A stretch of DNA of 63,998 nucleotides, filler included, from Stramenopiles sp. TOSAG23-3 (GCA_900128585.1; 5 parts of 5 records of this genome joined end to end with filler, not necessarily neighbours in it); one strand, 5' to 3'. Positions 24,103-53,063 are shown, counted from the first letter of the whole stretch. The notes: generated by a model not told the origin, from the letters alone. Program-made: numbers and translations.

Positions 24103-24361
24103 ACCATTCTCCTCTAACAATTACGTAGAGGCAAGGATAACAATCTGTTAGAATACAAAAGATAAAAAAATGACGTAGTTTGCAAAATCTAAATGCCACA
24201 AAAACAAATACTTTTTAAGAAATTCAACTTCTGTTCCGAAGCGGGGAAAGGATATCGTCCACTTTTTCTCTACAACGTGTCAAGCGTGCTTTTGTATTTT
24301 GTTTTCTTCAACACAAAATTATTATTATTATTATTAATTACTTTTTTTTTCTTCCTCTTCT

Positions 24362-24393
<32 letters not shown>

Positions 24394-24637
24394 TTCTTCT
24401 TCTTCTTCTTCTTCTTCTTCTTCTTCTTCTTCTTTTCTTCTTCTTCTTCTTCACAAGGACACAGTATTGGTAGTACATTAAAATAAATTTTGTGATTTGA
24501 AAATTTAAAATTATACTGTCGTATACTTCGTATTTTCTGAGTACAAATATGATAGGGTATTTAGTATCATTAGTATACAATGGGATAAGATGAGGGTCGG
24601 TCCATTATTATTAATAGTAAAATTTTTGTTGACTGTT

Positions 24638-25780
24638 TTACTCTTTCTTCTTTGAGCTTTGTTGTATGTTAAAATCATTCCCTGTACTCGTTACGATTTT
24701 TGGAAAAGTCTTCTGCCGGCTGCTTTTTCTCGCATTTCTCGTCCTTTTCATATCACTCAATTGACATATATACCACGTCGCGTCATTTAATGCGCCCCAA
24801 TCCACAACAGTGTCGTCGAAATGGACCGTGCGCGTTGGGTGCTGTTGATCAGTTTTTGAAAGCTTTGAGCAAACGTGTATTCCAAAATCTATCCCGTCGA
24901 CCGTGCCCTCTTCTACTTCAACCGCTACGATGTCTCCATCTGCAAAATGAGCCAATAACGTCATCCACAGTCTGCTGACAGACAACGTCTCGCCAGCACA
25001 CAAGACATTGGTCGCACATCCCGTCAATGCATAAACTATATTGGTAAATTCCAAAGATGGGAGGTTCTCATACCCGCCCGCAAAAGCTGCGATCCCCTTT
25101 TCTAGCAGCACCGGCCAGCATTCTCCTTCCGAAGAACCCCCCCAATCATCATTATTTCCAAATATTGGGACCACATCACTAATATTATACGACATAATCT
25201 TCCCCGCGTCGTACAGCCGAACATTGTACACTGAAGGTAGTCCCCCAATGGGTTTATTTCCACCAGGGAACGTGGCAGTATATCGTGTATCTTCAGCGCT
25301 TTCCACTCTTTCTTCAGCCGCGACTATGCAGTCCTTAATCGTAAACGATGAGTGTGACAGGACCCGAAATGCCGAGTACATGTTCAAAAATATTTCACTC
25401 CTCAATCCTTTTGAAATTCGGTGCATTTTACGGCCAGAGTAGAAAAGTACGGCGGGCTCACGCAAATATTCCGGGACGTTTTGGTCAACAACTACTCTAG
25501 GAGCCCTCTCCCAGGTTACAGGATAACCGCATAGTGCTTGAGGAAACTTGAACTCTTTGCGACTTTTGGAGATTTCCATCATAGTAAAACTAGCATTCTT
25601 TTCAGGCTCATCTGCAACTTTCAACGACCCTTTTTTATGTACAGATACAGCAACTTCGTCCGGCTCTATACATTCCGGCTCATGATGACTGGTCGAGCGA
25701 CCAGAGTGAACCGGCTGGGCTGGACGCTCCTGGACCCCACTACTTTTAGCGAAACAGCAAGAAAATATACTTTTCGGCAT
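24638..25780 (-). CDS. Calpain-like (CysPc) protein, probably catalytically inactive
   Basis: YNVRLYDAG, ECWPVLLEKGIAAFAGGYENL and ALTG match the calpain core. The QGxLGDCW and RNPWG motifs are absent. The N-terminus has SCCF. ATG at 25780; an alternative ATG lies at 25885. Confidence 0.7.
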   Translation of the reverse strand: MPKSIFSCCFAKSSGVQERPAQPVHSGRSTSHHEPECIEPDEVAVSVHKKGSLKVADEPEKNASFTMMEISKSRKEFKFPQALCGYPVTWERAPRVVVDQNVPEYLREPAVLFYSGRKMHRISKGLRSEIFLNMYSAFRVLSHSSFTIKDCIVAAEERVESAEDTRYTATFPGGNKPIGGLPSVYNVRLYDAGKIMSYNISDVVPIFGNNDDWGGSSEGECWPVLLEKGIAAFAGGYENLPSLEFTNIVYALTGCATNVLCAGETLSVSRLWMTLLAHFADGDIVAVEVEEGTVDGIDFGIHVCSKLSKTDQQHPTRTVHFDDTVVDWGALNDATWYICQLSDMKRTRNARKSSRQKTFPKIVTSTGNDFNIQQSSKKKE

Positions 25781-26352
25781 ATTGTCGTTGGTATCTTTCA
25801 GGCTTTTCGCGATGAAAGAAAACAGACGAAGCGGGTTAATTAAAAAAAAAAGGAAGAAAAAAAGAAGTGTAGACGATCCACTCATAGGTATTAATAATAC
25901 AGGTAGGTTCGGATTCGGAAGTCATCTAATTTGCATCCCTTCTTCGGTCTAAAATTATAACAACAACTATTCTTATTATTTTTTGTTGGTAGTAATAAGT
26001 ACGGGTACGGTGGAACGGGTATTACGGAACGGGTAGGGAATAACAATAGTAGTCTTTCTAATATTATATATACGGTATGATAGTAAAATAATAATAATAA
26101 TAATATTCTTCAACAAAAAACGCGATTGATTGAATGAAACGAATATTGAAATAGATTTTGAACGGGAAGTAGATTGAAGAAGTCACATGAATGAAATTAG
26201 CAACATCCAGGTTGTTGTATCTACAGCAAACTAATATTTTATAACAAGCATTTTGCACAAACCAAAGGTGCAGACAACTTCTTAGAATCTGTTTGAAGGA
26301 GTCTTATGTTCCTCAAAGGAAAGAGGCAGTAGAATTAACCGAGGTGTTAGCA

Positions 26353-26499
26353 ATGTTAGTTAAGATCCTGGCACTCTTCGTGTTGTTGGGCACGTCGGTG
26401 CGTGCGGTAAATCCTGTTTTAGGAAAAGATGAGGCAAAAAATGTTTTTCAAATTATTGATGCGAATGGGGACGGGAAAATTTCGCCTTTAGAGCTACGA
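26353..26499 (+). CDS. Secretory EF-hand protein, 3' truncated by contig end
   Basis: Signal peptide-like MLVKILALFVLLGTSVRA followed by a canonical EF-hand, FQIIDANGDGKISPLEL. Confidence 0.7.
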
Positions 26500-29171: not shown

Positions 29172-29288
29172 TGCCATCCTTTTGGTTGTTATTATTAGTA
29201 GGGTTTAAGATGATTTTTATATCTTTCTTTCTATCATCATATATTTTATATCATATTAAGAATATTGTATTTTAACCATTCACAACAA

Positions 29289-29590
29289 AGAAGAAGAAGA
29301 AAAGAAGAAGAAAGAAGAAGAAGAAGAAGAAGAAGAAGAAGAAGAAGAAGAAGAAGAAGAAGAAGAAGAAGAAGAAGANNNNNNNNNNNNNNNNNNNNNN
29401 NNNNNNNNNNNNNNNNNNNNNNNNNNNNNNNNNNNNNNNNNNNNNNNNNNNNNNNNNNNNNNNNNNNNNNNNNNNNNNNNNNNNNNNNNNNNNGAAGAAG
29501 AAGAAGAAGAAGAAGAAGAAGAAGAAGAAAGAAGAAAGAAGAAGAAGAAAGAAGAAAGAAGAAGAAGAAGAAGAAGAAGAAAAGAAGACG
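29289..29590. repeat. (GAA)n microsatellite spanning a scaffold gap (N 29379-29493)
   Basis: Direct reading of the sequence. Confidence 0.9.
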
Positions 29591-36167: not shown

Positions 36168-36323
36168 TAATTGCATATGAATGAGGAAGAGGGTTCTTGT
36201 ATCCTTTTCTTAAAAAAGACAAGGGAAGTATTTGTCCAATCTAACCCAAGACATACAAACAACAAAACCCAAAATAATAAATAACATCCCAACTTTTTAA
36301 TTGTTTTTATACTTTTACCAAAT

Positions 36324-38567
36324 ATGATGCTCCGAACCACCGCGTCTCGCGCCATGGCAGCCGCGCCGAAGCGAATGGGTGCACAGGCAATGTCCACCGG
36401 CCCAAAGATTATTTACACCGACTGTGACGAAGCCCCCTACCTTGCCACATACGCACTTTTGCCCGTCATCAAACGGTTTGCAGACCCTGCCGGCATCGCC
36501 GTCGAAAAGTCGGACATCAGTGTGGGTGCCCGCATCCTTGCCCAGTTCGGCCTGCACGACGACAAGCTTGCGGAGCTTGGTGAGCTTGCCAAGACCCCAG
36601 AGGCAAACATTATCAAACTCCCGAATGTGAGTGCCTCCATCCCGCAGCTGACTGCCGCCATCGCAGAGCTGCAGAGCCAAGGGCATGACATCCCTGATTT
36701 CCCAGCGGAACCATCGAATGCTGCGGAGGAAGCCACCCATGCCAAGTACGCTAACGTTCTGGGCAGTGCCGTCAACCCAGTCCTTCGCGAAGGGAACAGT
36801 GACCGGAGGGTCGCGGCGCCCGTCAAGCAGTACGCCATGAACAACCCGCACAGGATGGGGCAGTACGAGGATGGCTGCAAAAGCCATGTGTCCCACATGG
36901 ACGACCATGACTTCTTCAGTTCCGAGCAGTCTCACATCATGGCCGAGGCGGGAAGCGTTCGAATCGAACACGTCGGCGCGGACGGCACCGTCACGGTCTT
37001 GAAAGAGTCCACGGAGTTGCAGAAGGGTGAAGTTATTGATTCCAGCCGCATGGACTGCGCCGCCTTGTGCGACTTCTTCGAGAAAGAGCTCCAGGAGGCA
37101 AAGTCCCAGAATCTTATGGTATCCCTTCACATGAAGGCGACCATGATGAAAATATCCGACCCCATCATCTTCGGCCACTGCGTCAAGGTGTACTACAAAG
37201 ACGTCTTCGAGAAGCACGCGGACACCTTCGCCGAGGTCGGGGCCAACGCAAACAATGGCATCGGCGACATTTACGAAAAAATCCAAGGTCACGCGAAGCA
37301 GGCGGAGATTGAAGCCGACCTCATGGCCGTGTATGACAGTCGCCCGGGCCTCGCTATGGTCGACAGCCACAAAGGAATCACCAACCTGCACGTTCCCAGT
37401 GACGTCATCATTGACGCGTCCATGCCCGTCGTTGTCCGAGACAGCGGGAAAATGTGGAACAAGGACGACGCTTTGGAGGACGTTAAGTGCATGATCCCAG
37501 ACCGCTCGTACGCCAGGTTCTACAAAGCCATCCTGGAGAACTGCAAAGAGCACGGGCAGTTCGACGTCGCAACAATGGGCAATGTGCCCAACGTAGGCCT
37601 GATGGCGCAAAAGGCCGAAGAGTACGGATCGCACGACAAGACTTTTGAGGTAGAGTCGAATGGGACCATCCGTGTCGTCGACGACAACGGAAACGAGATC
37701 TTCTCCCACTCCGTCAACCAAGGAGACATCTGGCGAATGTGCCAAACGAAGGATGCCCCCATTCGTGACTGGGTGCGCCTGGCCGTGTCCCGCGCCCGCG
37801 CCACCGGCGCAAAGGCAATATTCTGGCTCGACGAAAACCGCGCGCACGATGCTAATTTGATCGGCCTTGTAAACGAGTACTTGAAGGACCACGACACCAG
37901 TGGGTTGGATCTTTCCATCGCCGCCCCAGTGGATGCGGTCAATGAGTCAATGACGCGGGCCCGTGCAGGATTGGACACCATCTCGGTCTCTGGTAACGTA
38001 TTGCGTGACTATTTGACCGATATGTTTCCAATTTTGGAGCTAGGAACCTCGGCCAAAATGCTGAGTATTGTTCCCTTGCTTGCCGGCGGAGGTTTGTTCG
38101 AAACTGGCGCTGGCGGCAGTGCACCGAAGCACGTGCAACAGTTTGTCGCGGAGAACCACTTGCGCTGGGACTCTCTCGGGGAATATTTGGCCCTGGCGGT
38201 ATCGTTTGAAGACTTGGGGGAGAAGACGAACAACGATCGCGCGAAACTGCTCGGTCAAACCCTGACAGACGCGACTGGGCAACTCCTCGAGAACCGCAAA
38301 GCACCGTCCCGTAAGGTGAACGAGTTGGACAACCGTGGAAGTACCTTTTACATCGCGATGTACTGGGCCCAAGAAATGGCCAAACACGACGATGCCTTCA
38401 AGGGATTGGCCGAACAATTGACAGCAAACGAGTCCGTCATTGTGGACGATTTGATCAGTTGCCAAGGAAATCCTGTGGATATCGGTGGATACTTCAGGCC
38501 AGACCCTGCAAAGGTTGAGGCCGCGATGAGGCCCAGCAAGACCTTCAACGATATTCTTGGTATGTAA
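36324..38567 (+). CDS. icd: Monomeric NADP-dependent isocitrate dehydrogenase with mitochondrial targeting presequence
   Basis: [85 protein letters not shown]-terminal 23 aa are Arg/Ala-rich with no acidic residues. Confidence 0.95.
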
Positions 38568-39884: not shown

Positions 39885-40153
39885 AGGCGAACAGATTTAT
39901 CGAATTATCCTCAAGTTTACCTATCTAAAATATCGTATTAAATTTTCATACTTTATGGATCATTACTAAAATGTTAATACATAAAACCTTGCGCGAGAAG
40001 ATGAATATTAATACTTCGTAATAAATTACAAACTACGATTATTTCTTGATCCCCTTCTTTTTCACTGGGAATTAGATTTAATAAAGGAATTCCAAAGCAC
40101 TAGGAGATTAAATAAACGAATTCCACAGTTTTGGGAACACTGATTCGATCATA

Positions 40154-40500
40154 TCAATTCTTTCGTAGATGAACTTTAATCTTTCTGCACAGAACATATT
40201 GTTTGGAATATCTATCCGCGTACGTGACGGGCAGTCCCGGTACATAACCACTTCGAAGCTTCCACAAACTCGAGGTACGAGTGGCCTTCAAACCACTGAA
40301 AGATATCCATACGATCTCTTGGTCGGCACACTGATACCCGAAGTTTGCTGATACCAATCATTTTGATATAGAAGTTGCGGTCATAAAATATTTCTGGAGG
40401 GAAGAGTGTCTTTATGAGACTCAGCTTGAACCGACACTGCATAAAAGGCGGGGGTAAACGCTTCTTGTTCGACGTTTGTTACCGGTTGTGTTTGCGACAT
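40154..40500 (-). pseudogene. Possible frameshifted orphan gene fragment
   Basis: Overlapping short minus-strand ORFs (MSQTQPVTN..., MQCRFKLSL...) switch frame near a G-run at ~40450. Confidence 0.3.
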
Positions 40501-40565
40501 GGATTTTCGTTTGGTTGAAGTTTCTATCTCTTGAAAACATAGACGGCTAGTATGTATAAATGGAC

Positions 40566-40658
40566 GCAGAACGTCGCAACCGGTCCGAACCGATATGTAG
40601 AACTTCGCAACCGGTCCGGACCGATATGCAGAACGTCGCAACCGGTCCGGACCGATAT
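40566..40658 (+). repeat. 3 x 31-bp tandem repeat containing palindrome CGGTCCGGACCG
   Basis: Units start at 40566, 40597 and 40628; consensus GCAGAACGTCGCAACCGGTCCGGACCGATAT. Confidence 0.93.
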
Positions 40659-40792
40659 GTCGGGCCACAGAGTCGGGCCACTTTTAGCTTACACGGTTAA
40701 GGCGTCCCGGAAGGTATGGTACATACAAAAAAATGTCTTGGTATGAATTCTATTTCTAGAAAACTGAAGAAAAGAATATATCAATTATCACA

Positions 40793-43700
40793 ATGACACC
40801 AAACGAACTCGCAATATTGAATTCAACCTTGACGCAGAGCCAAAAGATAAAAGTATTACGTAACTGCACTGATGACCAATTAAAAACGATATTGTCGTTT
40901 AATGGCAATCTCAGAGATGATCAGGTCAGGGCGGTTTTACATGGAGAAGATCCCGTTGTGCGTGGGTTTGTGCGTGAGTCAGCCGATGGACACAACGAGC
41001 CAGCCAAAGGTCTACCCGACGAGCCAACCAAGGGTCTGTCCGATACAGCAGTGCCAAAACGGAAACGAAGTAAACTTGTTAACAGAAAAACAGTTTACCT
41101 TTCCAAGAAAACACTGCCTTATTCTATCGAAAAGAAAATGTTTATCTTAACCCCTGCCACCGGATTTAAAAAACATACACGCGAAAAGGATGCCTCGCCA
41201 GACGCCGTTTTGAAAATAAAGGAAATGGGAACCTCCAAAATTGCAATATACCATCAAGCCGGCCGTGTCTACATTACCGTAGATTACCTTGGACTTTCCA
41301 GTGATTTGAAAGATGCCATTTCAAAAGAATCGAATCGTAAAGAGAAAGGGAAGAGACTCTACAATATCGTAGATTCTTCCATTTCAAGGGAAATGCGAGA
41401 CCTACTATCCGAAGAGGTTATTATTCCTAGGAAGGCAACACGGATAAAAGTGCACAAACTGGAGGACTTTATCAAAATTATGGAGGTCTTGCAGAAACAG
41501 GCAATCACCGACAAGGATATGAATGAAGCCATCCGAAATTTCAAAGCGAAGAAGGATCGTAAGAAGTTCGTCTCTGTCCTGTCAAAGTATCCTCTGGGAA
41601 AACGAACTAAAATTTTAGAAGGGAAGAATGTACGTTCGTCCAGAAGATTACTTTCTGATGCAGCAAAGATTTGGATTCCAAAAGGTTTCAAGTTGTATTT
41701 GAAAAAAACGAAAAAAGAGTTCGACAAGGAAAATCACATCAGAGAACTGAGATCGAATGTTTGTACTACATGGTCGCATATATTTACAAACGAGAAAGTT
41801 ACAGCGGACCGAATTGAAAAGGCGATGACAGAGGGTCAAAACTACGGTATGCAACCCGGGGATAATGGAGACCCGCCCGCTGTGAAATGCAAAAATCTAG
41901 GTGAAATTCTACGAGCCTTATCGTATATATTCAATAAAAAAGACAACCACGGAATCATTTCAATGTTGGCGGAGGCAAATACCGCAATTCGTAGTAAAAA
42001 CTACGATACAAAGAAAACGGAGGGTAGGGATCTTGTACGGAAAGAAGATATGGAATTCCTCTCTACGTCCTCCGAGCAACAAGATATTAAAAAATGGAGT
42101 TTGTCGGTGATTGCATCAATTGATTCGTATGACAAATTCGAGAGAATGGCCCATGAGTGCGAAGATACCTTCTTTAAAGAAATACATAGAAAGTTGATTC
42201 ATGAAACAGGGCAATGCACCAATCGACGGGAATTGAAATCATTTTACAATATGATGTCTGAGCAAAAGTTTTACACTGAATTGCGTTTCCTATGGAAAAT
42301 CCGTGATTCCTTGGGTGTTTCAACATTGAATGAACTGGTTGAATTTATCTTTAGCGATCAATCGGCCAGAGAATGGATCCATGGGTGGGTATGCGCAATG
42401 GTATGTACTACACATTTCGGGGCAACCAAAAGGAAGGACGTTGACCCGTATTTGGTAGGTGATACAGCAGAAGTGTATTTGAGATGCACGTATCATGTCT
42501 ACAATCTCCTTCCGGAGGAATACAAAGCGCGTTTCATGCAATATATGTTGCCATCGTTCATATCGTATTGGTTTTCTGCGCGAAATACAAATTGCGAAAT
42601 GATCCATGTGATTTCAAAAGGGGATTTCGAAAAACGTATGCAAGACAGCAATTCGTTCCCAGATCTTGACAAGGGAATCTTTATTGTTGTTTTACGCAAT
42701 GATTATAACATCATCAAGAGGGAAAAGAAGGCATCAACAGATGATAGTGCGGATATGAAATTGAAACTAAGCGAGGTTTCTGATAAAGATTATCCTTTTC
42801 TCCGGACATTAATACCGGAAATTCACCGTCGATACGAAGATTTATTGGGTTGCAAAGTAACCGCGGAGTCAATCGAACAGAGGAATTATATTTCGCATGA
42901 AAATACTCTATACGAAGACGGAAATATTATCCTGCAAAACCACACATTCCCTATGGTAGAGCCCGCATTTGTTCATGGCAGTGTCAAATACATTGGTGTT
43001 AATGTTCCAATCCTTCGCGAAACCCAACGAGTGAATACAACACCTCTAAAACTGCGCGCTCAACTTGATTTTTCCGCAGGAAATTCTGAACCATCAAAGA
43101 AACAACGGGAGGTTATCAAGAGTTTATCTGGGCGTGTGAATGGTGTTGAAACAACTTTCTCTTTCATGAAATTTCCTAACAAAGATTTGAAATCGATGTA
43201 TGCACGGTTGCGAACGGAAACAAATAACACAGCCAGCATAGATCCGTGCATGGAGAAAATGCAACAGGTCGTCGAAAACGCGTTGAAAGGAAAAATCGAT
43301 TTTGATGGATACACTTCAGAGTGCGATGTCTCAAAGTATATGTCTGAGAAAGAAATCAATCACCTACGTGTCGCCACGCAGAAAGGGTGTGTTTACGAGT
43401 ACAAATTTCTTGGACGATACAACAGAGGCAATGTCATGGCGGCCTGTGTAGACGAATTAAAAGATATCAATGGTCAATTCGAAGAGTTTCTAAAGGAAAA
43501 AGAAAAAGAATTACGACGGAAAGAAAATCACTTAACCCGAAAGATTTTGAGAGATAACTACAAGGCGTTCAAATCCGAGCGGTTGTTACCCTTTACTCGA
43601 TTCGGTGGCACATATGGCGGAGAAAAAAGTATTATTGAACGTTTATCCTCACATCCCACCTTCCCGACATGGGATAATCGCCCGGATACCTTCGTATGGT

Positions 43701-44059
43701 ACGAAGATACCGGTGGTTTGTTGGAAGACCGGTGTGAATATTTTCGCCTCATGAATTGTAAAGAACAATCTGCCCAAATATTCTTCCTTCGCATGTGGTA
43801 CGAACTTCGTTCGTTCATTAATGAATTTATTGAGGAAAAATTTGTGAGCCAAGGCATTCCTGCCACCCCGTCTATTGGAATCGTTAGATATTTAAAAAAC
43901 ATGGAAAAGATAATGAAAGCAGCGCAAGAAAGACACGCGGTGAAATACCCTCGACCCTCTATATTGGCCAGAACTCTTTCTATGGTGGAAAAATGTCTAT
44001 CTCCTAAACGGAAGAGAGATGATGAAGGGGGACCGAGCAAGCGGTTTAAACCGGAGTAA
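40793..44059 (+). CDS. Large orphan protein (1088 aa) with C-terminal bipartite NLS-like motif
   Basis: Uninterrupted 3.3-kb ATG ORF ending PKRKRDDEGGPSKRFKPE. No family confidently recognised. Confidence 0.8.
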   Translation: MTPNELAILNSTLTQSQKIKVLRNCTDDQLKTILSFNGNLRDDQVRAVLHGEDPVVRGFVRESADGHNEPAKGLPDEPTKGLSDTAVPKRKRSKLVNRKTVYLSKKTLPYSIEKKMFILTPATGFKKHTREKDASPDAVLKIKEMGTSKIAIYHQAGRVYITVDYLGLSSDLKDAISKESNRKEKGKRLYNIVDSSISREMRDLLSEEVIIPRKATRIKVHKLEDFIKIMEVLQKQAITDKDMNEAIRNFKAKKDRKKFVSVLSKYPLGKRTKILEGKNVRSSRRLLSDAAKIWIPKGFKLYLKKTKKEFDKENHIRELRSNVCTTWSHIFTNEKVTADRIEKAMTEGQNYGMQPGDNGDPPAVKCKNLGEILRALSYIFNKKDNHGIISMLAEANTAIRSKNYDTKKTEGRDLVRKEDMEFLSTSSEQQDIKKWSLSVIASIDSYDKFERMAHECEDTFFKEIHRKLIHETGQCTNRRELKSFYNMMSEQKFYTELRFLWKIRDSLGVSTLNELVEFIFSDQSAREWIHGWVCAMVCTTHFGATKRKDVDPYLVGDTAEVYLRCTYHVYNLLPEEYKARFMQYMLPSFISYWFSARNTNCEMIHVISKGDFEKRMQDSNSFPDLDKGIFIVVLRNDYNIIKREKKASTDDSADMKLKLSEVSDKDYPFLRTLIPEIHRRYEDLLGCKVTAESIEQRNYISHENTLYEDGNIILQNHTFPMVEPAFVHGSVKYIGVNVPILRETQRVNTTPLKLRAQLDFSAGNSEPSKKQREVIKSLSGRVNGVETTFSFMKFPNKDLKSMYARLRTETNNTASIDPCMEKMQQVVENALKGKIDFDGYTSECDVSKYMSEKEINHLRVATQKGCVYEYKFLGRYNRGNVMAACVDELKDINGQFEEFLKEKEKELRRKENHLTRKILRDNYKAFKSERLLPFTRFGGTYGGEKSIIERLSSHPTFPTWDNRPDTFVWYEDTGGLLEDRCEYFRLMNCKEQSAQIFFLRMWYELRSFINEFIEEKFVSQGIPATPSIGIVRYLKNMEKIMKAAQERHAVKYPRPSILARTLSMVEKCLSPKRKRDDEGGPSKRFKPE

Positions 44060-44125
44060 ACTAAGTTTACATGTATATATTTTATGAAACGTGAGTTAAA
44101 TTTTATGTAAAATAGATTACGTAAA

Positions 44126-44908
44126 TCAGCTCAGTTTAAAGAAATCCGTAGGATCACCTTTGGATAACTGTCGTTGAAGTGGAGTGTGTTTCTTCAGCCG
44201 AAATTTGGGCGCAACGCGGGATACAGTCTTTTTCCCGGTATACTTCTCCAGCGTTTCTTCAAGGGCTTCTTTCTTTCTCGTAAGATCTTCGATCGCAGTT
44301 TTAATAGCATTCTGATTTGAATTTGCTGGTAAGGCCTTGAGGCTCTCCGAAACACCTTTTAATTCGGATTTAGTGTTCTGGACCGCTTGAGCCTTTAGCA
44401 CAGACATAGCTTCTTCCACGTACACATCGTCCCAATGGTCCGCGACGAGTCCCAGTGTTTGGCACAGTGAATCACGTATGGCTCTACCGTATTCAGAGGT
44501 ATGAATTTCGGATTTATCCAGCTGTGCTTTGATTAGCTTCAGAATTGGTTCCAACTCGAAGCCAACCGCTGCAAACTCGTTCTTGTCCACGTCGATATCG
44601 GTACCCAGCTTTGTTTCACGTCGTTCGATATTCGCACACGAATATTTGACGTTGAGTTTGGTATCTTCATATTCTTGGACAACCTCGTTTAAATCCAACG
44701 AGCCTTCTTCCTGCGCGGTAGCAAGGTATTCATGGATGTCCGCCGCGGTCTCGTTAAGAACTTTCTCAAAGCCTTGGGCTAAGACGGAGGTCCCGTCCTC
44801 GGTAGTAACCGCGGTAGACGGTATTTTACAGTTGCCACAGTGTTTGTTATCCTTTACACAGTCAGGGCTGCGTTGGCACTTTTTGCGTTTTTGATATCGT
44901 GTCGTCAT
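44126..44908 (-). CDS. Orphan protein with N-terminal Cys/His mini zinc finger and coiled coil
   Basis: CQRSPDCVKDNKHCGNC near the N-terminus and a helical acidic body. ATG at 44908. Confidence 0.65.
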   Translation of the reverse strand: MTTRYQKRKKCQRSPDCVKDNKHCGNCKIPSTAVTTEDGTSVLAQGFEKVLNETAADIHEYLATAQEEGSLDLNEVVQEYEDTKLNVKYSCANIERRETKLGTDIDVDKNEFAAVGFELEPILKLIKAQLDKSEIHTSEYGRAIRDSLCQTLGLVADHWDDVYVEEAMSVLKAQAVQNTKSELKGVSESLKALPANSNQNAIKTAIEDLTRKKEALEETLEKYTGKKTVSRVAPKFRLKKHTPLQRQLSKGDPTDFFKLS

Positions 44909-45050
44909 TTTTTTGCTGGTGTTAACTTTTGAAATCACAACTTTTGAAATAGAAACAGGTTAGACAATTGTGTCGAACATGGGAGTATGTCGCTTTTGGA
45001 TCCAAAATACTGAACCTCTTGCTAATCTGGATCCAAAATCCGGGCTGCGG

Positions 45051-45335
45051 GAGTCGTTTTAGATATTACATATAAGATAATTGTAAATTCGGCTCACAAA
45101 AATATTTTGTATTGAATACCATAGAGGGACACGCAGATGCTAATCCCCTACTGGCGATAATCCGAAACCGGAGACGATTCCTTTGCTGTCTCGATATCAA
45201 TATTGGAATAGCATATATAATCATGTATATGTTATTCGCTGTATACAGGTTACAGGGACATACGGTATATCATTGTTTGTATATTATCACCTGTATCAAG
45301 TTTCTTGTCCTCGTTAAAGCCCTGTGGCTCAAATC
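45051..45335 (+). repeat. ~285-bp direct repeat, copy 1
   Basis: Closely similar to 52771-53063 (GAGTCGTTTTAGATATTACA...GGCTCAAATC). Confidence 0.93.
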
Positions 45336-45808
45336 GAATCCCTGCCTGTCTCGCCGTACGAAAGACACAGATACCTACTGGCGAGAACCATTCAATATGG
45401 AAACAGGACGTATAATTTTTCCATGTTAAAACCCTGTTACAGGCCTCTTGTCAGTCCGGAGACAGATGTCAATGCTGTTCAATGTACTTGGAAAAAAAAA
45501 CCGGTAAAAAAGAAAATAACCGCCTCGTGGTGCCATAGCCGTAGCCGTAGCCGCGTCGGTAAACCGCAACCGCCTCGAGGCAATAATCCAGAGTGTTACA
45601 ATAACTTTGAAAGAATAATGGCTGTACGATAAAATGTGAAGGTAATGCCAATTACGCAGGATAAAAAGTTTGTTCGTGAATACAAGAAGGATGAATAAAG
45701 TATCCCCTTCCGTTGATACTGTGCGGCCGGTCGAGGCGGTTACGGCTACGGCGGCGAAGCCTCTGAAACAAAAAACCGTGTTCGAGCACGAAGATTGTGT
45801 CAACACCT

Positions 45809-46165
45809 AAGCCCTCGAAGAAACGCTGGAGAAGTATACCGGGAGGAAGACTGTATCCCGTATCGCTCAAATTTCGGCTGAAGAAACACACCCCACTTCA
45901 ACGACAGTTTGGTGCTACTTGTCTATAGGGAATTCTTGGCCACGGGGGCTGCTAAGAAAATGATTCCGGCGGGTGGGGGTGGGGGGATATGTTTCGTAAC
46001 AACTATACCAAAGCACTGCAATCGAAGAACTAAGCTTAAGAAAACGAAAGAAGCCCTCTACGAAATCCTTGAGAACTACACCGGGGAAACGGCTGTGCAA
46101 TTCCACGTCGCTGTGAAATTTCGGATAAAGAAACACGCCCTGCTTCAACGGTAGTTGTCCAAGGG
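45809..46165 (+). pseudogene. Two degenerate, inverted copies of the 3' end of the 44126-44908 gene
   Basis: 45809-45909 is near-identical to the reverse complement of 44166-44268. 46047-46165 encodes KEALYEILENYTG...KFRIKKHALLQR*LSKG versus KEALEETLEKYTG...KFRLKKHTPLQRQLSKG. Confidence 0.75.
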
Positions 46166-46306
46166 AAATCAAAAAGATTTCTTTAAACTTCATTGAGCTG
46201 ATGATCCTGTAGAAATCTAAATTTATAAATCACATCTTAAGATTCTTACTGTAAAACCTCACAGACCAAAAGCCATGCTAATGTTACTTTTACTTTGTAC
46301 ATTATG

Positions 46307-48139
46307 TTAGGAAGAAAATTTCCGATAAAAATGACTAGGTGCTTGCTCTTCATGATTCACAAATAGATTATGATGCTCGTTTGAAGACAATTCCAATAGT
46401 CGAGAAATATGGGGCATATTTTTGGGATTGAATATGGCTTTTACAACATCTTTTAGATTGCCATAACCCAAAATCTGCTTTGTTGATAAAGGGCATGTAT
46501 CCATTTTGCACAATATAATACTCTTCACCTTTAAAAACAACAAAGGTTTTATTTGCGGTCGCATCATTATTGACCCATCCATGAAATCAATCAGATTTTT
46601 TGTCCCACACGTCAAATTACATTTTATACAAGATGGAACCATGTTCCAGATTTCATCCTGAGCAGTATCACCGCACCCTTTTGCATTTGCGTCAATGTGG
46701 GCACATTGGAAGGAACCCTCCTTCTTGATATTGTTGATTTTGCATATTGGACATTTTGCGTTCGACTCTTCTCTAAGAATAATTTCCCAAACATCTTTTC
46801 GATCACGAGGTGTCAGTCTTGCCATTGTCTTTGCTTTCTTTGCTGGAGAGGCACTTCGTTTTGAACAAACCCCATCCGTTTTTCGAAGGCATAATACATG
46901 CGTCCAGTCTCCAGTTTCACAGGTCATCGCTTGATTTTTAGCAGCCCCCCCACAAATACGGCATCTTACGGTGCTTGGCGCATTGGCAGCGCACCGATTG
47001 CAATACCATTCTCCTTTCGGTATTTTTGATATTTTATAACATTCTTTGTGTACCTTCACGCCACAATCCTTTCCGTCACAGTAAACAATGGGGTTTTTTT
47101 TCGGTGATGACAGTTTCTGACAAATACTGCACTGATCCTCCTCACTTTCACCAGAAGATGATTCGCCACTTGGTTCGCTGTCGTTTTTTTGGGATTGTTT
47201 GCTGTAGAGACTTACGATCCTTGGGGGAAAATTATCTTCTTGTATCCAAAGGGATTTTTTTGATCCAAAGAATACAACTTCGAGTTCTTTTCCATTTTTT
47301 GTTTGTCTCTCATCAACGATCTTTTCAACAATATTGAACATCCCGTAAATGTCGCACAACTCTTCAGAGCCAATATCTTGATTCCTTATCAATCTCGCTA
47401 AATTGAGCGGCCGCGAGGGCTTGCTACCGGAAGATAAACGAAGAGGACAGCAATCACGACAGAAAACCACACGGAGGTGAGGATGAATTTTACCTTGTTG
47501 TAGGACGTTTTTGACCGATAAGAATGTCGCGTCATCTTTAAGTGCACAATTAAGATGATAAGTGTGTCTACACGAATTGTCCATGCAGCCTATAGCAGCG
47601 CCTTTGCGTTTACAAAGAGCGCACTTTAGAGATGCAGAACGTCGCAACGCTTTAAAAAGGTGAACGTTGAACTTTTTTGGTGCGGGGATAAAACTAGAGC
47701 ATTCGCTGTACTGTTGAAGGTCAGGGGCCCACTGTGCACAAAGTTCGTGGATGTATTTTGTTTGCGGGCTTCCAACCCGTGAGAATGGACCTACAGGTTG
47801 CTCCCATAATCCGCCCCCCCCATCTTTACAAAAGGCACAGTTCCCAGCGTTTTCACAGGTTACGCTTTCTTGAGAAGAAAGAAAAAACGAATCGTTCTCA
47901 TAGTCTGACAAATTTTGCAAACTCTCTTCTTCGTCCCGTTGAGGCGTAGATTGCTTTAAATGTCTTCTTTGATAGTCCAATTTTGGTCTTCCTCGTTTTC
48001 GTCCTCGCGTTTTTTTTTCTGGCTTTACTAACTCCTCTTCCTCGGAGCTTTCTTCCTCGAAGCGGGCGCTTCCCTCGGGATATTCGCCTCTGCCATAGTC
48101 TTCTTCTTTTTTCCAAAACAGTTGTTTGATAAAATTCAT
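46307..48139 (-). CDS. AT-hook / ePHD / chromo-like / PHD-Zn-knuckle / HNH endonuclease fusion protein
   Basis: KRGRP; CAFC...HELCAQWAP...CALCKRKGAAIGC...YHLNCA...FCRDC (ePHD); VEKIVDERQTKNGKELEVVFFG...WIQEDNF (chromo-like); CSIC...NPIVYCDGKDCGVKVHKECY...WYCNRC plus CRIC...WTHVLC (AF10/BRPF-type); RKDVW...CPIC...FQCAHI...NMVPSCIKCN (HNH). Confidence 0.85.
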   Translation of the reverse strand: MNFIKQLFWKKEEDYGRGEYPEGSARFEEESSEEEELVKPEKKTRGRKRGRPKLDYQRRHLKQSTPQRDEEESLQNLSDYENDSFFLSSQESVTCENAGNCAFCKDGGGGLWEQPVGPFSRVGSPQTKYIHELCAQWAPDLQQYSECSSFIPAPKKFNVHLFKALRRSASLKCALCKRKGAAIGCMDNSCRHTYHLNCALKDDATFLSVKNVLQQGKIHPHLRVVFCRDCCPLRLSSGSKPSRPLNLARLIRNQDIGSEELCDIYGMFNIVEKIVDERQTKNGKELEVVFFGSKKSLWIQEDNFPPRIVSLYSKQSQKNDSEPSGESSSGESEEDQCSICQKLSSPKKNPIVYCDGKDCGVKVHKECYKISKIPKGEWYCNRCAANAPSTVRCRICGGAAKNQAMTCETGDWTHVLCLRKTDGVCSKRSASPAKKAKTMARLTPRDRKDVWEIILREESNAKCPICKINNIKKEGSFQCAHIDANAKGCGDTAQDEIWNMVPSCIKCNLTCGTKNLIDFMDGSIMMRPQIKPLLFLKVKSIILCKMDTCPLSTKQILGYGNLKDVVKAIFNPKNMPHISRLLELSSNEHHNLFVNHEEQAPSHFYRKFSS

Positions 48140-48901
48140 GATAAACAAAGCAAGCAATTGACCCTCTTATTTTAATAGTTTCGCACAAATCCAACTGCTT
48201 GAGTTTGGACAAAAAAAAGAATTGTCAGCGTTTAGCAAATACGTCATGGATCCACTTGCAAAGCTATAGATATCTATGAGCAAATACTTGCTGATTGTGT
48301 CACATTGTACTTCAGTAGTAGTGATGTTCCATAAATAGGATAGCTTCAGATGGAAGCATCAGCAGGGGGTACCAAAGGATTGTTTTAGTACCTAATTATG
48401 TTGTCGATGAGCCGATCCCCCCCTCCGTTTTTTATGAGACATAAGATCAGATAATCCTTCCTTCTTTTTAGACAGTCCACAAAATGTAGACACAACTGAC
48501 CAACAAGTACAATTCTTCTACTTAGTCTATGACGAGTAAGTCTATCGCGAAATGAAGCGCAACGGAAACAGTCAAAACACCCGTGCTAAAGGCCGATTCG
48601 AGCAGGAACATTATGATTGTATAGACTCGGGTCGCAGTATTTAATACCGGCGCCGGTTATGGACGGACATGTTATCTGGTTCTTAACACGGATACACTGA
48701 AAACAGAGCACTGCGCGTATATTTCGACACTTCATTATTTAAAATTTACCATACTAATCGGCTGTTACAAAACCATTATTAATACCGCATACCGAAGCGG
48801 GCGGACAAAAAAACACCTAAGAACGTATCCTACTACACTACGGTACTAACCCTCATCTATACAAGGTAACAAGGTAACAACTTAAATCCCATTTTAAAAT
48901 A

Positions 48902-49574
48902 ATGAAAAACGGGCCTGTAATACTTCTGTTTTACCCAGAAGACTCAGAAGTATATCAGAAAATGCATACGGGCAGTTACTTTGGCTGCGAGACGTTATTT
49001 GAATAATGCAAAATGAAACGAGAGGTTCTTTTCGAAAAGCAATCATCTTGTTTGAACAATGTAAAAGAGGAAGTCTCGGTCGCACATTTCTATGCACTGG
49101 CATGATTAGCAATTATTGGTATAAAGAAAGTCTCGCCCAAATGTTTTTTGTGTTGTATTATAGTATACTCCCCACCCCGACACGGTACCATATGTTCCCC
49201 GTTCCGGTGATTCTTTTGGATAAAATGAATGAGAAACAGGCAACGTGTTATAATAAAATTTGTGAAGCCGTTTCCATAGATGTGCAACCAATACCTGTGG
49301 AAGCATAGAAGAACTGTATGCGCTTTTTTCAGAGTTCAATTCAAAAGGAAAATCCATAGTGGATGATAGTGTTCCTATCAAGAGATCCACCAAAAGATCT
49401 GAGAAAACATTAAGCGCTAAAGAAGTCGCCGACCGAAAAAGAGAGAGCGTTGCGGCTGAAAAAGGAAAACAATCGGCAATCGAAAGAGCAAAGCTGATTG
49501 CTGAAGACGCTGCTGATAAAGCAAGAGAAGAACTTGAAGAAATTGATGAGCCGGCTATTCAGAAGTCTTCTTAG
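48902..49574 (+). pseudogene. Probable frameshifted orphan gene
   Basis: Consecutive plus-strand ORF pieces (49006-49308, 49359-49574) in different frames; the latter is coiled-coil-like and its frame stays open upstream into the first piece. Confidence 0.35.
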
Positions 49575-50004
49575 AATTTATCTTATCATACATAGTATTA
49601 GTGTCACACTAACAACTAGCAATACCATACTTCCACTATCGCGATGGCGATTTCCTTAATTTATCTTCATTTAAGATTATACAGGGTAATTAAATCACTT
49701 TATGGACTGAATTACATTTTCCTGTTCTTTTTAAGGTAAATTTTTATTCATTCTCATTATTTTTTTGCGCCCCGCTAAAATCCCTCTACTTGTAAGATAT
49801 TGAAACAGGTGCACAGAATGATCTGCATCACAGCTCCGTGTATTAAAATATTTCAAATCTTGATCAGCGCAACAATTTGTTTCATACAAGCTGTTATTCA
49901 AGGACCCCTTAACTCTTTCAATGCGATCCAAAACCTTCGGAGACACACTTTCAAGTGATTGAATGCAGAGGAATTACCAAACTTGTAGAAGATTTATAAC
50001 CAAA

Positions 50005-50481
50005 ATGACTGACAACGCAGCAAATTCTCCTCCTGTAAAGTTATTGTACATCGGGGAGTTAAAAGACGGAAAATACCACGGGAAAGGAACGCTGTTCGGT
50101 AAAGCAGGAGTTCCGAAATATGAGGGTGGCTTTGAGAATAATGCTTGCCATGGTATAGGGAAGGTTTTTGACAACCATGGTGTACTAATGTATCATGGAG
50201 ATGTGCAACAAAATAAGTATCATGGCGAAGGAAAGTGCTTTGATGGAAAAGGTAACCTTCGGTACGAGGGGCAGTTGGAAAACAATTTATTTCACGGCCA
50301 TGGAACTCTATTCGACGCTAACGGCAAAGTTATATTTTCTGGGGTTTTCGAAAAACACCAAATGAAAGGACAAGGTCTGCGGCATGGGAAATTGCCACTA
50401 CCAAGACTTGTAAAGAGAGGCCGTCCACGGAGATTGGACTGCGACGATGAGGCTTCAAGTAAGAAAAGGAAAAAGAGCTGA
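50005..50481 (+). CDS. MORN-repeat protein with C-terminal AT-hook/NLS
   Basis: About five YxGxxxxxxxHGxGxxF units, then KRGRPRR and KKRKK. An alternative ATG lies at 49963. Confidence 0.85.
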   Translation: MTDNAANSPPVKLLYIGELKDGKYHGKGTLFGKAGVPKYEGGFENNACHGIGKVFDNHGVLMYHGDVQQNKYHGEGKCFDGKGNLRYEGQLENNLFHGHGTLFDANGKVIFSGVFEKHQMKGQGLRHGKLPLPRLVKRGRPRRLDCDDEASSKKRKKS

Positions 50482-50557
50482 TTGTTATCCTTCCAAGTAG
50501 GCAAAAGAAAAGGGCACAAGGATCCTCATTGCAACGCTAATATAATTCGTATTACAA

Positions 50558-50667
50558 AAAAATATTTACATTAAGAATTACTCGATTTAGATCGGTATTA
50601 TTTGCGTCAAAGTTTCCTAGATTTCGTGAAAAATATTTTCATTAAGAATTACTCGATTTAGATCGGT
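50558..50667 (+). repeat. Two ~38-bp direct repeats (core CATTAAGAATTACTCGATTTAGATCGGT) about 71 bp apart
   Basis: Direct reading of the sequence. Confidence 0.85.
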
Positions 50668-51128
50668 GGGGTATTATTCTCTCGGGTGTGTTGGGCATTT
50701 TTCCCCCGCTTCTCTGCCCATCGAAAGGCTCGAACCAAGGGCGCGTCGAACTTCTCTTGGGCCCTGCGCATGAGGGTTTCCATTTTTTCCAACTCTTTGT
50801 CTACACAAACATACCTGCTCTGGTATATTTTTTAATTCCTTGCACAACATGTAGAATTGCGGAATGCAATCATTTACTCTTCTAAAATTAGGAATCGCTC
50901 GTTGTACATTCTCCTATTCCGTGATTCGGTGCTCTCGATCGGCCCCCGAAAAAGTAGCGTAATTTAGTGTAAATTATAGGGTTGAAAAGTCCGTCATCCG
51001 TCATACCTGTTATAAAAATTCAAAATTAATATATTTCTTGCGCCCGTACAATTAATAATGCAAAAAGTAAAAAATCACGATGGAAAAAGTAAAAAGTAAA
51101 AAGTAAAGCGAAGTATTTTTAACGAAAG

Positions 51129-51737
51129 ATGGAAGAGTTAAGCTACGTTGGTCCGTACCTGATCGGGCACTTTACCGGGGACAGTGAGCTTGCCGTAGTT
51201 CTGTTGCTGGACCCGGAAACGCACTCGCCGCTGGTCAACAAGGAAGAATTACACGCTATAGAGACGTGCGTGGAGAAAGAGATGGCGGTGAAATCTAGAG
51301 TCGTGTATTATGATCTATTCGAAGCGCAGAACGACACAACACGAGAGATCTATGCAAGGGACGTGCATCCGCTGATCGAAGTAGCAAGACTCGCCCGGAA
51401 CAGTGTTATGGAAGCAGTTGTCCACGAGGATCTTTACGCCGGCGAATTTAGACACCTTCGTCTCTGTCACGGACTGGTAAGCAACACTTTGCTAGCGCCG
51501 TTCATGTACACGTATACGGCGACAGACCCGTACATTGTCGTAAAGGCGAAATCGTCAACCATAATATTCAAACAAACGAAAGAGAACATACTGGCATCTC
51601 TCGTTCCGGAGACCTTACTGGATACAAACTTGATTCACGTAGCTCACGAAGTAGACGAGGCTCAGCAGCTAGCCGAAGATCAGCTGGACGGCGAAGGAAA
51701 ACACGGTGGAGGAAGAGTGCATCAATTTGATATTTAG
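51129..51737 (+). CDS. Orphan 202-aa protein
   Basis: ATG ORF with coding-like GC between AT-rich flanks, preceded by an (AAAAGT)n run. Confidence 0.6.
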   Translation: MEELSYVGPYLIGHFTGDSELAVVLLLDPETHSPLVNKEELHAIETCVEKEMAVKSRVVYYDLFEAQNDTTREIYARDVHPLIEVARLARNSVMEAVVHEDLYAGEFRHLRLCHGLVSNTLLAPFMYTYTATDPYIVVKAKSSTIIFKQTKENILASLVPETLLDTNLIHVAHEVDEAQQLAEDQLDGEGKHGGGRVHQFDI

Positions 51738-52770
51738 GTATTTTATAATTAAAGGTCGAGCTTGTCTCGCTTCATAAACCGTTGTTCCTGATTAGCTATC
51801 CTCCGTTGATATTAATATAATTCACAATAATATTTTAATGCTAAAATATATGTGTTGGAACATCACCTGACTGCTGCTATTTTTACTTCGCCCTTTCTGT
51901 AGCTGTCGAACAGCGTCTTCCCTTCCAGCCTCGCCTGCCGGTGAAATTTTTGACCAGCCGTACCAATTTAGTTGATAACAATCTTCAATATTGTGGTTTA
52001 GTTTCGCTGTAGGAAAAATTATACACCCTTGTATATTTTATTAAATTAAAAACTTATTACGCATTTTGATTGTTTTATGTTAATCCTCGAATGCACTCGG
52101 GTGCACCCTTTCACAGGGAACCTGCATGCCGTTCTTAGTAAAGCCATTTTTTTCATACTGGACCTTATCTGGATAAACATCGTGTTTAATGCCTTTGATG
52201 AAGGTGTGGAAATACTTTAATTTTACTAAATTAAAGCTTTATTTTCACTTGGCTGCTTCAATCTTTTCAGTGCCCCGCTCCATTGTGGAAGGACAGTGCA
52301 AGACATCCTGCAAAGTGCGCAAATCGGATGGCGTTTGGTTTTCAAATTCTTAATCGGGGATACAACTGCATTTATGGTGATACTTTAGAGTGTCCCATTC
52401 TTCTCGGACGAACTCTACCCCTCCCGAAGTTACTAAACCGTCGCACCGCACACATATGAGCTGCGGTATGTCGGAGCACGGACTTGTGCGGTTACGAACC
52501 TCAAACCACCGAAGGAAATCTCGTATCTCTGTGTTTTCCACAGGCATTTTATTAGCGGAAGAAGCCAACCGACGGAGAGAGCTTAGAAAAGGCCGCAAAA
52601 CGAGTCGGTGATACAGACAAGTGGAGGTCTATCAAGAAACAATTGAAAGAATGGCTTTTGGAAGAGGAGGAGGAGTGTGTTTCGAAGCGAATGTTTGCCT
52701 CTGCCTGTTGTATCATTGGGTGCCGGGTAGAGAGAGATTCACACAAGGCTGGACAGTTTTTGATTTTCGT

Positions 52771-53063
52771 GAGTCGTTTTAGATATTACATATAAGATAA
52801 TTGTAAATCCAACACAAAATATTTTGTATTGAATACCATACAGGGACACGCAGATGCTAATTAGCTACTGGCGATAATCCGAACCGGAGACGATTCCTTT
52901 GCTGTCCCGATATTAATATGAAAATAGCATATATAATCATGTATATGATATTGGATGTATACAGGTTACAGGGACATACGCTACATCATTGTTTGTATAT
53001 TATCCCCTGTATCAAGTTTCTTGTCCTCGTTAAAGCCCTGTAGGGGATTTGGAGGCTCAAATC
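52771..53063 (+). repeat. ~285-bp direct repeat, copy 2 (runs to contig end)
   Basis: Matches 45051-45335 with scattered substitutions and small indels. Confidence 0.93.

Follow-up and report, generated by a model that had tools for sequence, protein, structure and literature searches.

A predicted tyrosine-recombinase/topoisomerase-IB-type enzyme encoded on an orphan-rich contig of Stramenopiles sp. TOSAG23-3

The DNA analysed in this study (the window; 63,998 nt) is derived from Stramenopiles sp. TOSAG23-3, an uncultured marine protist, and consists of five contigs joined by N runs and a TTAATTAATTAA linker. Contig 4, which corresponds exactly to positions 39885–53063, is 13 kb long and carries five substantial open reading frames (ORFs A–E). 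For ORF A (1088 amino acids), a fold shared with tyrosine recombinases and topoisomerases of type IB is predicted. Our preferred, still tentative interpretation is that contig 4 is host-resident DNA, in which ORF A encodes the recombinase of a low-copy, Crypton-like transposon, or an active cellular derivative of such a recombinase, beside a conserved gene (ORF C) that combines PHD fingers with an HNH nuclease. This interpretation is carried by the fold match, conserved residues, coding constraint, a host-like composition and structural variants; under it, ORF A would be catalytically active and mobile, and limits can be proposed for the unit.

Tyrosine-recombinase elements (Cryptons, DIRS elements, Starships) are among the eukaryotic mobile elements that are hardest to detect, because their ends are unclear and their enzymes have diverged past sequence recognition. 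The ORF A family, which comprises at least 44 clusters from marine metagenomes, is placed in the recombinase/topoisomerase-IB class only by structure prediction. If this family is active, it would add a recombinase lineage for marine protists and might provide a new site-specific DNA tool.

Predicted fold, family and conserved residues of ORF A

A HMMER scan of 1.84 billion representative sequences yielded 44 relatives of ORF A at E ≤ 0.001 (24 at E ≤ 1e-10 and seven at E ≤ 1e-30), and a word-based search yielded two. Full-length members of this undescribed family are ~1050 amino acids long (896–1137) and 20–28% identical; a C-terminal nuclear localisation signal (NLS) of the SPKRKR type, present as SPKRKR in ORF A, recurs throughout the family. 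All clusters of the family are annotated as hypothetical or unnamed. The ten members that were looked up came from metagenome-type sources throughout and belong to 90%-identity clusters of one or two sequences (ORF A itself 2; ORF C 29; the COG5 protein of the host 7). In Pfam scans of ORF A and its family, no match to Phage_integrase, Topoisom_I, DUF3504 or DUF3435 was obtained, and the ESM Atlas contained no usable match for ORF A or ORF E.

The model of the whole protein is mediocre (predicted local distance difference test, pLDDT, 66). In an exhaustive structural alignment, its residues ~550–1000 nevertheless matched XerA, Cre, variola topoisomerase and lambda integrase, among other relatives (Z 5.9–4.3), and residues 114–236 matched the DNA-binding domains of Dachshund (Z 6.1, 93 of 99 residues) and Ski (Z 5.5). 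A winged-helix-like domain is accordingly predicted for the N-terminal part of the protein (residues ~114–236). A domain model of residues 545–1088, calculated from 23 sequences, reached a pLDDT of 83.6 and a predicted template modelling score of 0.84. When it was compared to 48,161 PDB representatives with VIA-align, ranks 1–27 were occupied exclusively by tyrosine recombinases, topoisomerases IB, protelomerases or Ndc10 (Z 7.7–3.9), and the first unrelated entry appeared at rank 28 (Z 3.8). The highest values were found for XerA (Z 7.7, 188 aligned residues), Cre (7.5) and the integron integrase IntI (7.4), followed by bacterial topoisomerase IB, Tn1549 integrase and variola topoisomerase (7.2 each); human topoisomerase IB reached 6.6, and Ndc10 was matched with Z 4.1 and 3.7. 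The alignments cover 86–96% of isolated catalytic domains (lambda 157/164, P2 157/167, HP1 147/170 residues). The fold was assigned because the list of matches is uniform and the coverage of the domains is high, and not by score alone; on these grounds, the domain model shows the catalytic-domain fold of the tyrosine recombinase/type IB topoisomerase superfamily (Z < 8).

Five candidate catalytic residues are conserved in the family in the order R597 (13 of 13 sequences), K646 (13 of 13), R875 (17 of 18), H913 (19 of 19) and Y923 (20 of 20), which is how they would be arranged in an R-K-R-H-Y active site, and all of them are located at plausible strand or helix positions in the domain model. 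H913 precedes Y923 by ten residues, the distance from R875 to H913 is 38 residues, and an insertion of ~230 residues is situated between K646 and R875. Judged from the model, ORF A is probably a tyrosine-recombinase/topoisomerase-IB enzyme of a new kind. It is also more likely to be an active enzyme than a domesticated scaffold, because the catalytic-type residues are retained, whereas domesticated descendants of Cryptons have lost them according to the accessible part of the description by Kojima & Jurka (2011; PMC3212892).

Variants between sequencing runs suggest that ORF A and the adjacent ORF B are under coding constraint. Forty of 56 variant positions were listed, and all 29 listed positions inside the five ORFs were scored. 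Among the variants listed for runs X5 and X15, all five in ORF A concern third codon positions and four are synonymous; in ORF B, 17 of 23 concern third codon positions and 16 of 23 are synonymous. A variant of ORF A with a 15-nt in-frame deletion agrees with the 1083-amino-acid protein P0033. Furthermore, contigs from RNA libraries of two studies, with poly(A) selection in one, were found on ORFs A, B and C and showed no splice joints. They are compatible with transcription of these genes but are no proof of it.

Composition, hallmarks and structural variation of contig 4

The features of contig 4 are listed below, with the strand where one applies.

40157..40502, minus strand: three overlapping, broken frames that lie upstream of ORF A and diverge from it, no Pfam match
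40568..40660: three tandem 31-bp units, 130–230 bp upstream of ORF A
40793..44059, plus strand: ORF A, 1088 amino acids, predicted enzyme of the tyrosine-recombinase/topoisomerase-IB fold
44126..44908, minus strand: ORF B, 260 amino acids, orphan, convergent with ORF A, multi-copy sequence
45048..45335, plus strand: copy A of a direct repeat, 91–93% identical to copy B
45470..45471: break point relative to the metagenome contig L001, which continues leftward with 333 bp unrelated to the window
45809..46202, plus strand: two inverted partial copies of the 3' end of ORF B (45809–45909, 91%; 46015–46202, 72%)
46307..48139, minus strand: ORF C, 610 amino acids, PHD fingers and HNH (His-Me finger) nuclease
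48685..49559: 875-bp segment, replaced by 18 other bases in L001, two overlapping frames inside
49963..50481, plus strand: ORF D, 172 amino acids, MORN-repeat protein
51129..51737, plus strand: ORF E, 202 amino acids, orphan
52768..53063, plus strand: copy B of the direct repeat, ends at the contig edge

In an initial annotation, made from the sequence alone, contig 4 had been described as a foreign-looking island, possibly an endogenous viral or novel mobile element. The underlying observations were confirmed. Housekeeping genes are lacking: Pfam families occur in two of the five large ORFs, namely ORF C (extended PHD and PHD fingers) and ORF D (MORN), and neither is housekeeping. Likewise, GAA/CTT microsatellites are missing, with no run of at least four units in contig 4 vs 4–7 in each other contig, which agrees with the TRF results. 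On contigs 1, 2, 3 and 5, 11 of 12 large frames possess Pfam families (DENN, ankyrin, VPS13 with 3469 amino acids, calpain, a CmcI-type methyltransferase, acyltransferase, COG5, monomeric isocitrate dehydrogenase, a TRAPPC11-like protein, WD40 and PARP). These four contigs contain ordinary eukaryotic genes as long uninterrupted frames, and the host is therefore an intron-poor protist. No Rfam family was matched on contig 4, and ARAGORN detected no tRNA across the whole window.

The description of contig 4 as foreign-looking was not borne out, because tetranucleotides, flatness of GC content and codon usage match those of host genes with a low GC content at third codon positions (GC3), such as VPS13 and PARP. 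In 300-nt windows, contig 4 has a GC content of 0.412 (standard deviation, sd, 0.041) and contig 2 one of 0.419 (sd 0.047), and the sd of contigs 1, 3 and 5 ranges from 0.095 to 0.118. The flat GC profile noted for contig 4 is thus real, but it is not unique to this contig. Contig 2 (13306–26499) consists mostly of one uninterrupted VPS13 frame (13711–24120, minus strand) at a flat GC content of ~42%; an orphan-rich contig with flat GC content need not be foreign when the VPS13 contig of the host itself looks alike. The tetranucleotide comparison proposed as a check likewise placed contig 4 closest to contig 2 (r = 0.92; 0.79–0.89 to the others). Host genes fall into a class with high GC3 (0.55–0.74) and one with low GC3 (~0.38–0.49; VPS13 0.41, calpain 0.44, PARP 0.38, CmcI 0.49), and the genes of contig 4 (0.38–0.56) lie within the low class. 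Relative synonymous codon usage correlates with that of VPS13 at 0.51 for ORF A and 0.62 for ORF C (PARP for comparison 0.60). The genes of contig 4 also share the intron-free, long-ORF style of the other contigs, and no splice joints occurred in RNA-library contigs. Contig 4 is therefore not compositionally foreign.

For the COG5 protein of the host, only unnamed metagenome proteins were found as relatives (57% and 35% identity), and the nearest named proteins are 24–26% identical; the lineage has no close reference genome. Since a host gene also has metagenome-only relatives, such relatives are no mark of foreignness. Within 40793–48139, 0.99–1.00 of the sampled words were present in four small runs, which stem from three samples of a single coded organism; these runs are possibly the source of the assembly itself and hence not independent. 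Six other studies contributed ten marine DNA runs with 0.45–0.81 of the words, and contigs of one of these runs, X5, extend over all 30 bins of contig 4.

Besides the five ORFs, the searches for hallmarks included 41 of the 64 additional frames with at least 60 amino acids, the remaining 23 being located inside ORFs A and C. In the scanned frames, no capsid, packaging ATPase, polymerase, primase-helicase or protease was found with Pfam and PHROGs (divergent capsids escape Pfam), and no reverse transcriptase (RT), RNase H, rve, integrase or DDE family with Pfam. Among the viral contigs of IMG/VR, no relative of ORF A or ORF C was detected with ORF A, ORF C, the ORF C alignment, P0002, P0061 and an alignment of P0002 with P0063 as queries, which is weak evidence. 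Positive evidence for an endogenous virus was thus not obtained, and contig 4 looks like the host's own DNA rather than that of a virus. The initial annotation had likewise reported no capsid, ATPase, polymerase or DDE hallmark; with DDE transposases as the only transposase class considered, it overlooked the recombinase fold of ORF A, which is invisible from sequence.

The direct and inverted repeats reported earlier are present, as are intact orphan ORFs side by side with fragments (pieces of ORF B, the frames at 49006–49571 and those at 40157–40502). The frames at 40157–40502 could represent a decayed or spliced small gene, and the overlapping frames 49006–49308 and 49266–49571, in or at the edge of the 875-bp segment, look like a single broken or spliced small gene. 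A partly decayed state hence suits only the fragments between the genes; it does not apply to ORFs A and B, whose variants are mostly synonymous and in third codon positions, or to ORF C, which belongs to a well-conserved family. The direct repeat spans at least 288 bp, and its copy B runs into the contig end. A reading of its copies as long terminal repeats (LTRs) was rejected: no RT or integrase lies between them, the contig edge truncates copy B, and the sequences on either side of the copies do not align. The tandem array upstream of ORF A (period 31, 3.0 copies, 91% matches) harbours a 12-bp palindrome, CGGTCCGGACCG, in each unit, with one mismatch in unit 1. It occurs three times in the window (0 expected) and nowhere outside the array; from their sequence, the palindromic units may be regarded as candidate protein-binding sites.

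The region is structurally polymorphic between samples. L001 matches positions 45471–48684 and 49560–49993 of the window at 98% identity, has 18 other bases in place of 48685–49559, and to the left of 45471 carries 333 bp that resemble nothing in the window. In run X1, a single contig of 14.6 kb starts at 40755, which is 38 bp before the start codon of ORF A, and leaves the window sequence at 51553 inside ORF E; it has a depth of 33 and its flanking pieces one of 3.6–5.8, although depths of Logan contigs do not equal copy numbers. Run X5 bridges the site at 51553 and branches at 51764. Other contigs of X5 match only from 44133 or 44136 rightwards, with a differing sequence before, and an ORF B-like copy is therefore present in another context. 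The positions 40755 and 45470, where such breaks occur, might mark element ends.

The earlier proposal of a nucleus-acting, possibly mobile element is therefore plausible, in view of the recombinase/topoisomerase-IB fold of ORF A, its conserved residue set and NLS, and the structural differences between samples. The NLS and AT-hook strings quoted in the initial annotation were all found in the ORF translations.

Alternative readings and known systems

According to the interpretation preferred here, contig 4 would be nuclear DNA travelling with the same protist as the other contigs, gene-poor, repeat-bearing and filled with lineage-restricted genes for nuclear proteins. The ORF A protein would enter the nucleus via its conserved NLS and bind DNA through the N-terminal winged-helix-like domain. 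Y923, helped by R597, K646, R875 and H913, would then cut and rejoin DNA via a covalent 3'-phosphotyrosine link, and the Crypton-like element could be excised as a circle and subsequently reintegrated. ORFs A and B together with the neighbouring repeat would roughly make up the unit. ORF C probably lies next to ORF A by chance, as a separate gene that has been conserved vertically; ORF D and ORF E are further neighbours.

Several points weigh against this interpretation. The best Z value of the domain model (7.7) lies under the caution line of 8, below which VIA-align allows for a chance arrangement, and Foldseek gave no match at E ≤ 0.001 for either model against PDB or for the whole-protein model against BFVD. 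The catalytic equivalence of the R-K-R-H-Y set was assigned by order, spacing and the residue numbers of known enzymes and not by superposition. At the sequence level, Pfam assigned ORF A to no family at E ≤ 0.01, and its residues 545–1088 to none at E ≤ 10; Pfam searches with 23 family members gave four scattered sub-threshold matches, one of them to Phage_int_SAM_5 (E 0.031), and sequence profiles of PDB entries returned nothing relevant for the family. The ORF A unit yielded neither termini nor target-site repeats nor an empty site, and the break points may partly be chimeras of assembly or amplification. A search of 373 frames of the window with the ORF A profile (hmmsearch) retrieved ORF A alone, as a single copy. 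Its clusters of one or two sequences fit single-copy host genes as well as low-copy transposons, and no host gene is physically linked on contig 4.

Some of these points suit an ordinary host region, in which ORF A would be a fixed cellular gene, for a lineage-specific enzyme (topoisomerase-like, resolvase-like or acting on chromatin) or a domesticated recombinase. ORFs B–E would then be fast-evolving, lineage-specific genes, and the repeats and variants would reflect normal intergenic turnover. We consider this the strongest competitor, if a somewhat unlikely one. The host-like composition and codon usage, the coding constraint, the small clusters of the ORF A family and the one copy within the window are all in line with it; moreover, the relatives of ORF C (47–56% identical) are about as divergent as the nearest relatives of the host COG5 protein. 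Domesticated recombinase folds do exist, and Ndc10, which was among the fold matches, and the DUF3504 genes are examples given in the available text of PMC3212892. The same text, however, reports that catalytic residues were lost in the domesticated Crypton derivatives, whereas R, K, R, H and Y are retained in nearly all sequences of the ORF A family. With identities of only 20–28%, full-length members are also more divergent than expected for a housekeeping enzyme, and neither the several partial and displaced copies of ORF B nor the 98%-identical contig L001, which lacks the ORF A side of the junction, are easily reconciled with a fixed gene.

Alternatively, the whole contig could be a piece of a larger mobile island that extends beyond the visible 13 kb, either a Starship-like cargo element that ORF A would move, with the recombinase as its first gene, or a DNA virus of the polinton-like, giant-virus or mirusvirus-like kind, integrated or episomal, with its hallmark genes outside this stretch; we regard this as improbable. 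Housekeeping genes are absent from 13 kb, whereas they are dense on the other contigs, the direct repeat reaches the contig end, and relatives of ORF C elsewhere likewise have orphans and ankyrin-repeat genes around them. Large DNA viruses frequently carry MORN, ankyrin and HNH genes. Many integrated polinton-like viruses are reported to use tyrosine recombinases. The contig of run X1 that starts just before ORF A at a depth well above its flanks would also fit, but depth is unreliable in amplified or small assemblies. Opposed to such an island are the lack of a viral hallmark family in the five ORFs and 41 further frames, a composition indistinguishable from that of host genes with low GC3, and a coding density (summed ORF lengths) of ~53%, which is low for a virus. 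Furthermore, a relative of ORF A adjoins a relative of ORF C in none of eight metagenome loci: the ORF A family profile had no match among the 187 frames of these loci, and the two genes are therefore no travelling set. ORF A and ORF C do not travel together.

A further reading, also improbable in our estimation, would combine both aspects: ORF A would represent a new superfamily-level branch of the eukaryotic recombinases/topoisomerases IB, undetected by any sequence profile, that drives an unrecognised class of DNA elements in uncultured marine protists, of which contig 4 is a part, with the recombinase at the edge and the HNH reader protein as cargo. If this were true, the histone-reading HNH nuclease could steer cutting or integration to particular chromatin. 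Finally, mis-binning from another cellular organism of the same samples is very unlikely: contig 4 lacks a physical link to a host gene and is the sole contig without GAA/CTT microsatellites, but its tetranucleotides and codon usage are closest to those of host contig 2, it is nearly complete in the four runs from three samples of one organism (possibly the source of the assembly itself), and its genes are long ORFs free of introns, as on the other contigs.

Among known systems, Cryptons come close to the preferred interpretation. As far as the accessible text of PMC3212892 (Kojima & Jurka 2011) states, these elements possess a tyrosine recombinase as their only enzyme, do without terminal inverted repeats (TIRs) or long repeats, are maintained in very few copies, have an additional ORF in some cases, and are known in stramenopiles, with CryptonS in oomycetes and a diatom. 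In all scanned frames of contig 4, the predicted tyrosine recombinase is likewise the only such enzyme, with neither RT nor DDE transposase. The very low copy number, the dispensability of TIRs and LTRs, the occasional second ORF, the nuclear action and a conserved C-terminal region past the catalytic core would be further features held in common. Unlike Cryptons, ORF A shows no detectable similarity to a Pfam recombinase or DUF3504 model, has a candidate R-K-R-H-Y set instead of the R-H-R-Y tetrad quoted in the accessible text, contains the insertion of ~230 residues (K646–R875) in its catalytic domain and begins with a Dachshund/Ski-like winged-helix region; it is also known from one copy, and no termini were found. 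The DIRS, Ngaro and PAT elements are distinguished by RT and RNase H beside the recombinase, and no such Pfam family occurs on contig 4.

Type IB topoisomerases are matched by the domain model at equal rank (variola 7.2, bacterial 7.2, human 6.6) and have an R-K-R-H-Y pentad. The Arg-to-His spacing of the poxvirus and human enzymes, roughly 42 residues, resembles the 38 residues between R875 and H913. In contrast to them, ORF A has no Pfam Topoisom_I match and is three times as large as its viral and bacterial counterparts, and its family is far too divergent for a core housekeeping topoisomerase.

With the Starship captains, as described in the available part of PMC10104507, ORF A has in common that it is a large (~1000 amino acids) eukaryotic protein of the tyrosine-recombinase type, located at one side of a group of unrelated genes, some of which encode repeat proteins. 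It lacks a DUF3435 match, in contrast to the captains, and its neighbours are unlinked to it in the eight related loci. Ndc10/Cbf2 and the DUF3504 genes (KCTD1, ZMYM2-4, QRICH1) share the fold class and, according to the accessible text of PMC3212892, are nuclear and Crypton-derived, but the catalytic residues reported there as lost are kept in the ORF A family. KolobokP (PMC9587614) also ties a gene for a His-Me/HNH-type nuclease to a eukaryotic DNA transposon; in the part of that paper available, it has a DDD/E transposase and TIRs, whereas no DDE domain or TIR was found on contig 4 and the HNH domain of ORF C is fused to chromatin readers.

Neighbouring genes and further observations

ORF C carries an extended PHD finger and a PHD/PZP-type finger, between which a possible Royal-family (chromo/PWWP-like) module is situated, and a C-terminal HNH domain; an AT-hook-like RGRP motif is found near the N-terminus. 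Four Pfam families exceed their gathering scores (zf-HC5HC2H 40.1 bits, cut-off 29.1; zf-HC5HC2H_2 39.6, cut-off 27; PHD_2 39.3, cut-off 28; PHD 29.4, cut-off 24), and the module between the fingers gave only sub-threshold Pfam matches (PWWP 0.09, Chromo 0.19). A profile of the ORF C family matched the PHD-zinc knuckle-PHD structures of NTO1, AF10, JADE1 and BRPF1 in the PDB (4e-23 to 1e-15) and the extended PHD finger of PHF6 (1.5e-9). None of these readers ends in an intact HNH nuclease domain as ORF C does.

The MORN and HNH genes that had been recognised from the sequence both stand. For ORF D, Pfam MORN was matched with E 1.1e-12 (47.5 bits, cut-off 22.5). The HNH domain of ORF C was matched by PHROGs families (6.5e-6, 3.7e-4 and 2.8e-3) and by Pfam HNH only with E 0.22; its motif, CxxC...H...N...CxxCN, is invariant in eight of eight sequences (C463, C466, H481, N499, C504, C507, N508) and corresponds to the CxxC...H...N...CxxC[NH] pattern of the beta-beta-alpha metal finger of HNH/His-Me finger nucleases. 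ORF C thus reads as a chromatin-tail reader fused to a nuclease with an intact motif and may be considered a candidate chromatin-targeted nuclease. Full-text literature searching turned up no title reporting a fusion of PHD and HNH domains. A pseudogene reading of ORF C, based on an extra C in run X1, was discarded, since this base sits in a C7 homopolymer.

Relatives of ORF C form eight full-length clusters, all of metagenome type, with the HNH C-terminus as the best conserved part. They are encoded at eight metagenome loci, one of which is L001, 98% identical over the stretch that it shares with contig 4. Syntenic orthologues, whose existence the initial annotation had considered, were not seen beyond L001: the other loci have no gene besides ORF C in common with contig 4. 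The neighbours there are orphans and ankyrin-repeat proteins. Ankyrin is the only significant Pfam family at L004 (nine frames scanned) and L003 (two frames scanned), and none of the four frames scanned at L005 possesses a Pfam family. The ankyrin-repeat proteins near relatives of ORF C comprise ~280 amino acids and occur in two lineages (L003, 3027–3854, minus strand; L004, 5379–6227, minus strand). Positions 9350–11768 of L004 and 629–3073 of L005 give identical matches to the conserved part of ORF C; the relative is a single frame of 814 codons in L005 and is split into two overlapping frames in L004, by a frameshift or an assembly error. On a JGI contig, a relative of ORF C is present in pieces of 335 and 302 amino acids (P0019 and P0020).

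The N-terminus of ORF B is basic and rich in Cys, the body of the protein is helical and acidic, and no family was found for it in Pfam or PHROGs. The product of ORF D carries an AT-hook-like RGRP motif and a KKRKK stretch at its C-terminus. Just downstream of this gene, two 39-bp direct repeats (97% identical) are located 71 bp apart at 50558–50667. ORF E is an orphan that has no Pfam family.

On the other contigs, the monomeric-type isocitrate dehydrogenase (36285–38567; Pfam IDH, 1194 bits) is encoded on a eukaryotic contig, with a GC3 of 0.70 and AT-rich flanks. The scaffold gap of 115 N in contig 3 (29379–29493) lies inside an AAG/GAA microsatellite with ~30 units on either side (flanks 29288–29588) and is probably a collapsed repeat. 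The largest repeat of the host with a purine/pyrimidine strand bias is a CTT-rich tandem array of 330 bp on contig 1 (9347–9679; period 11 or 18).

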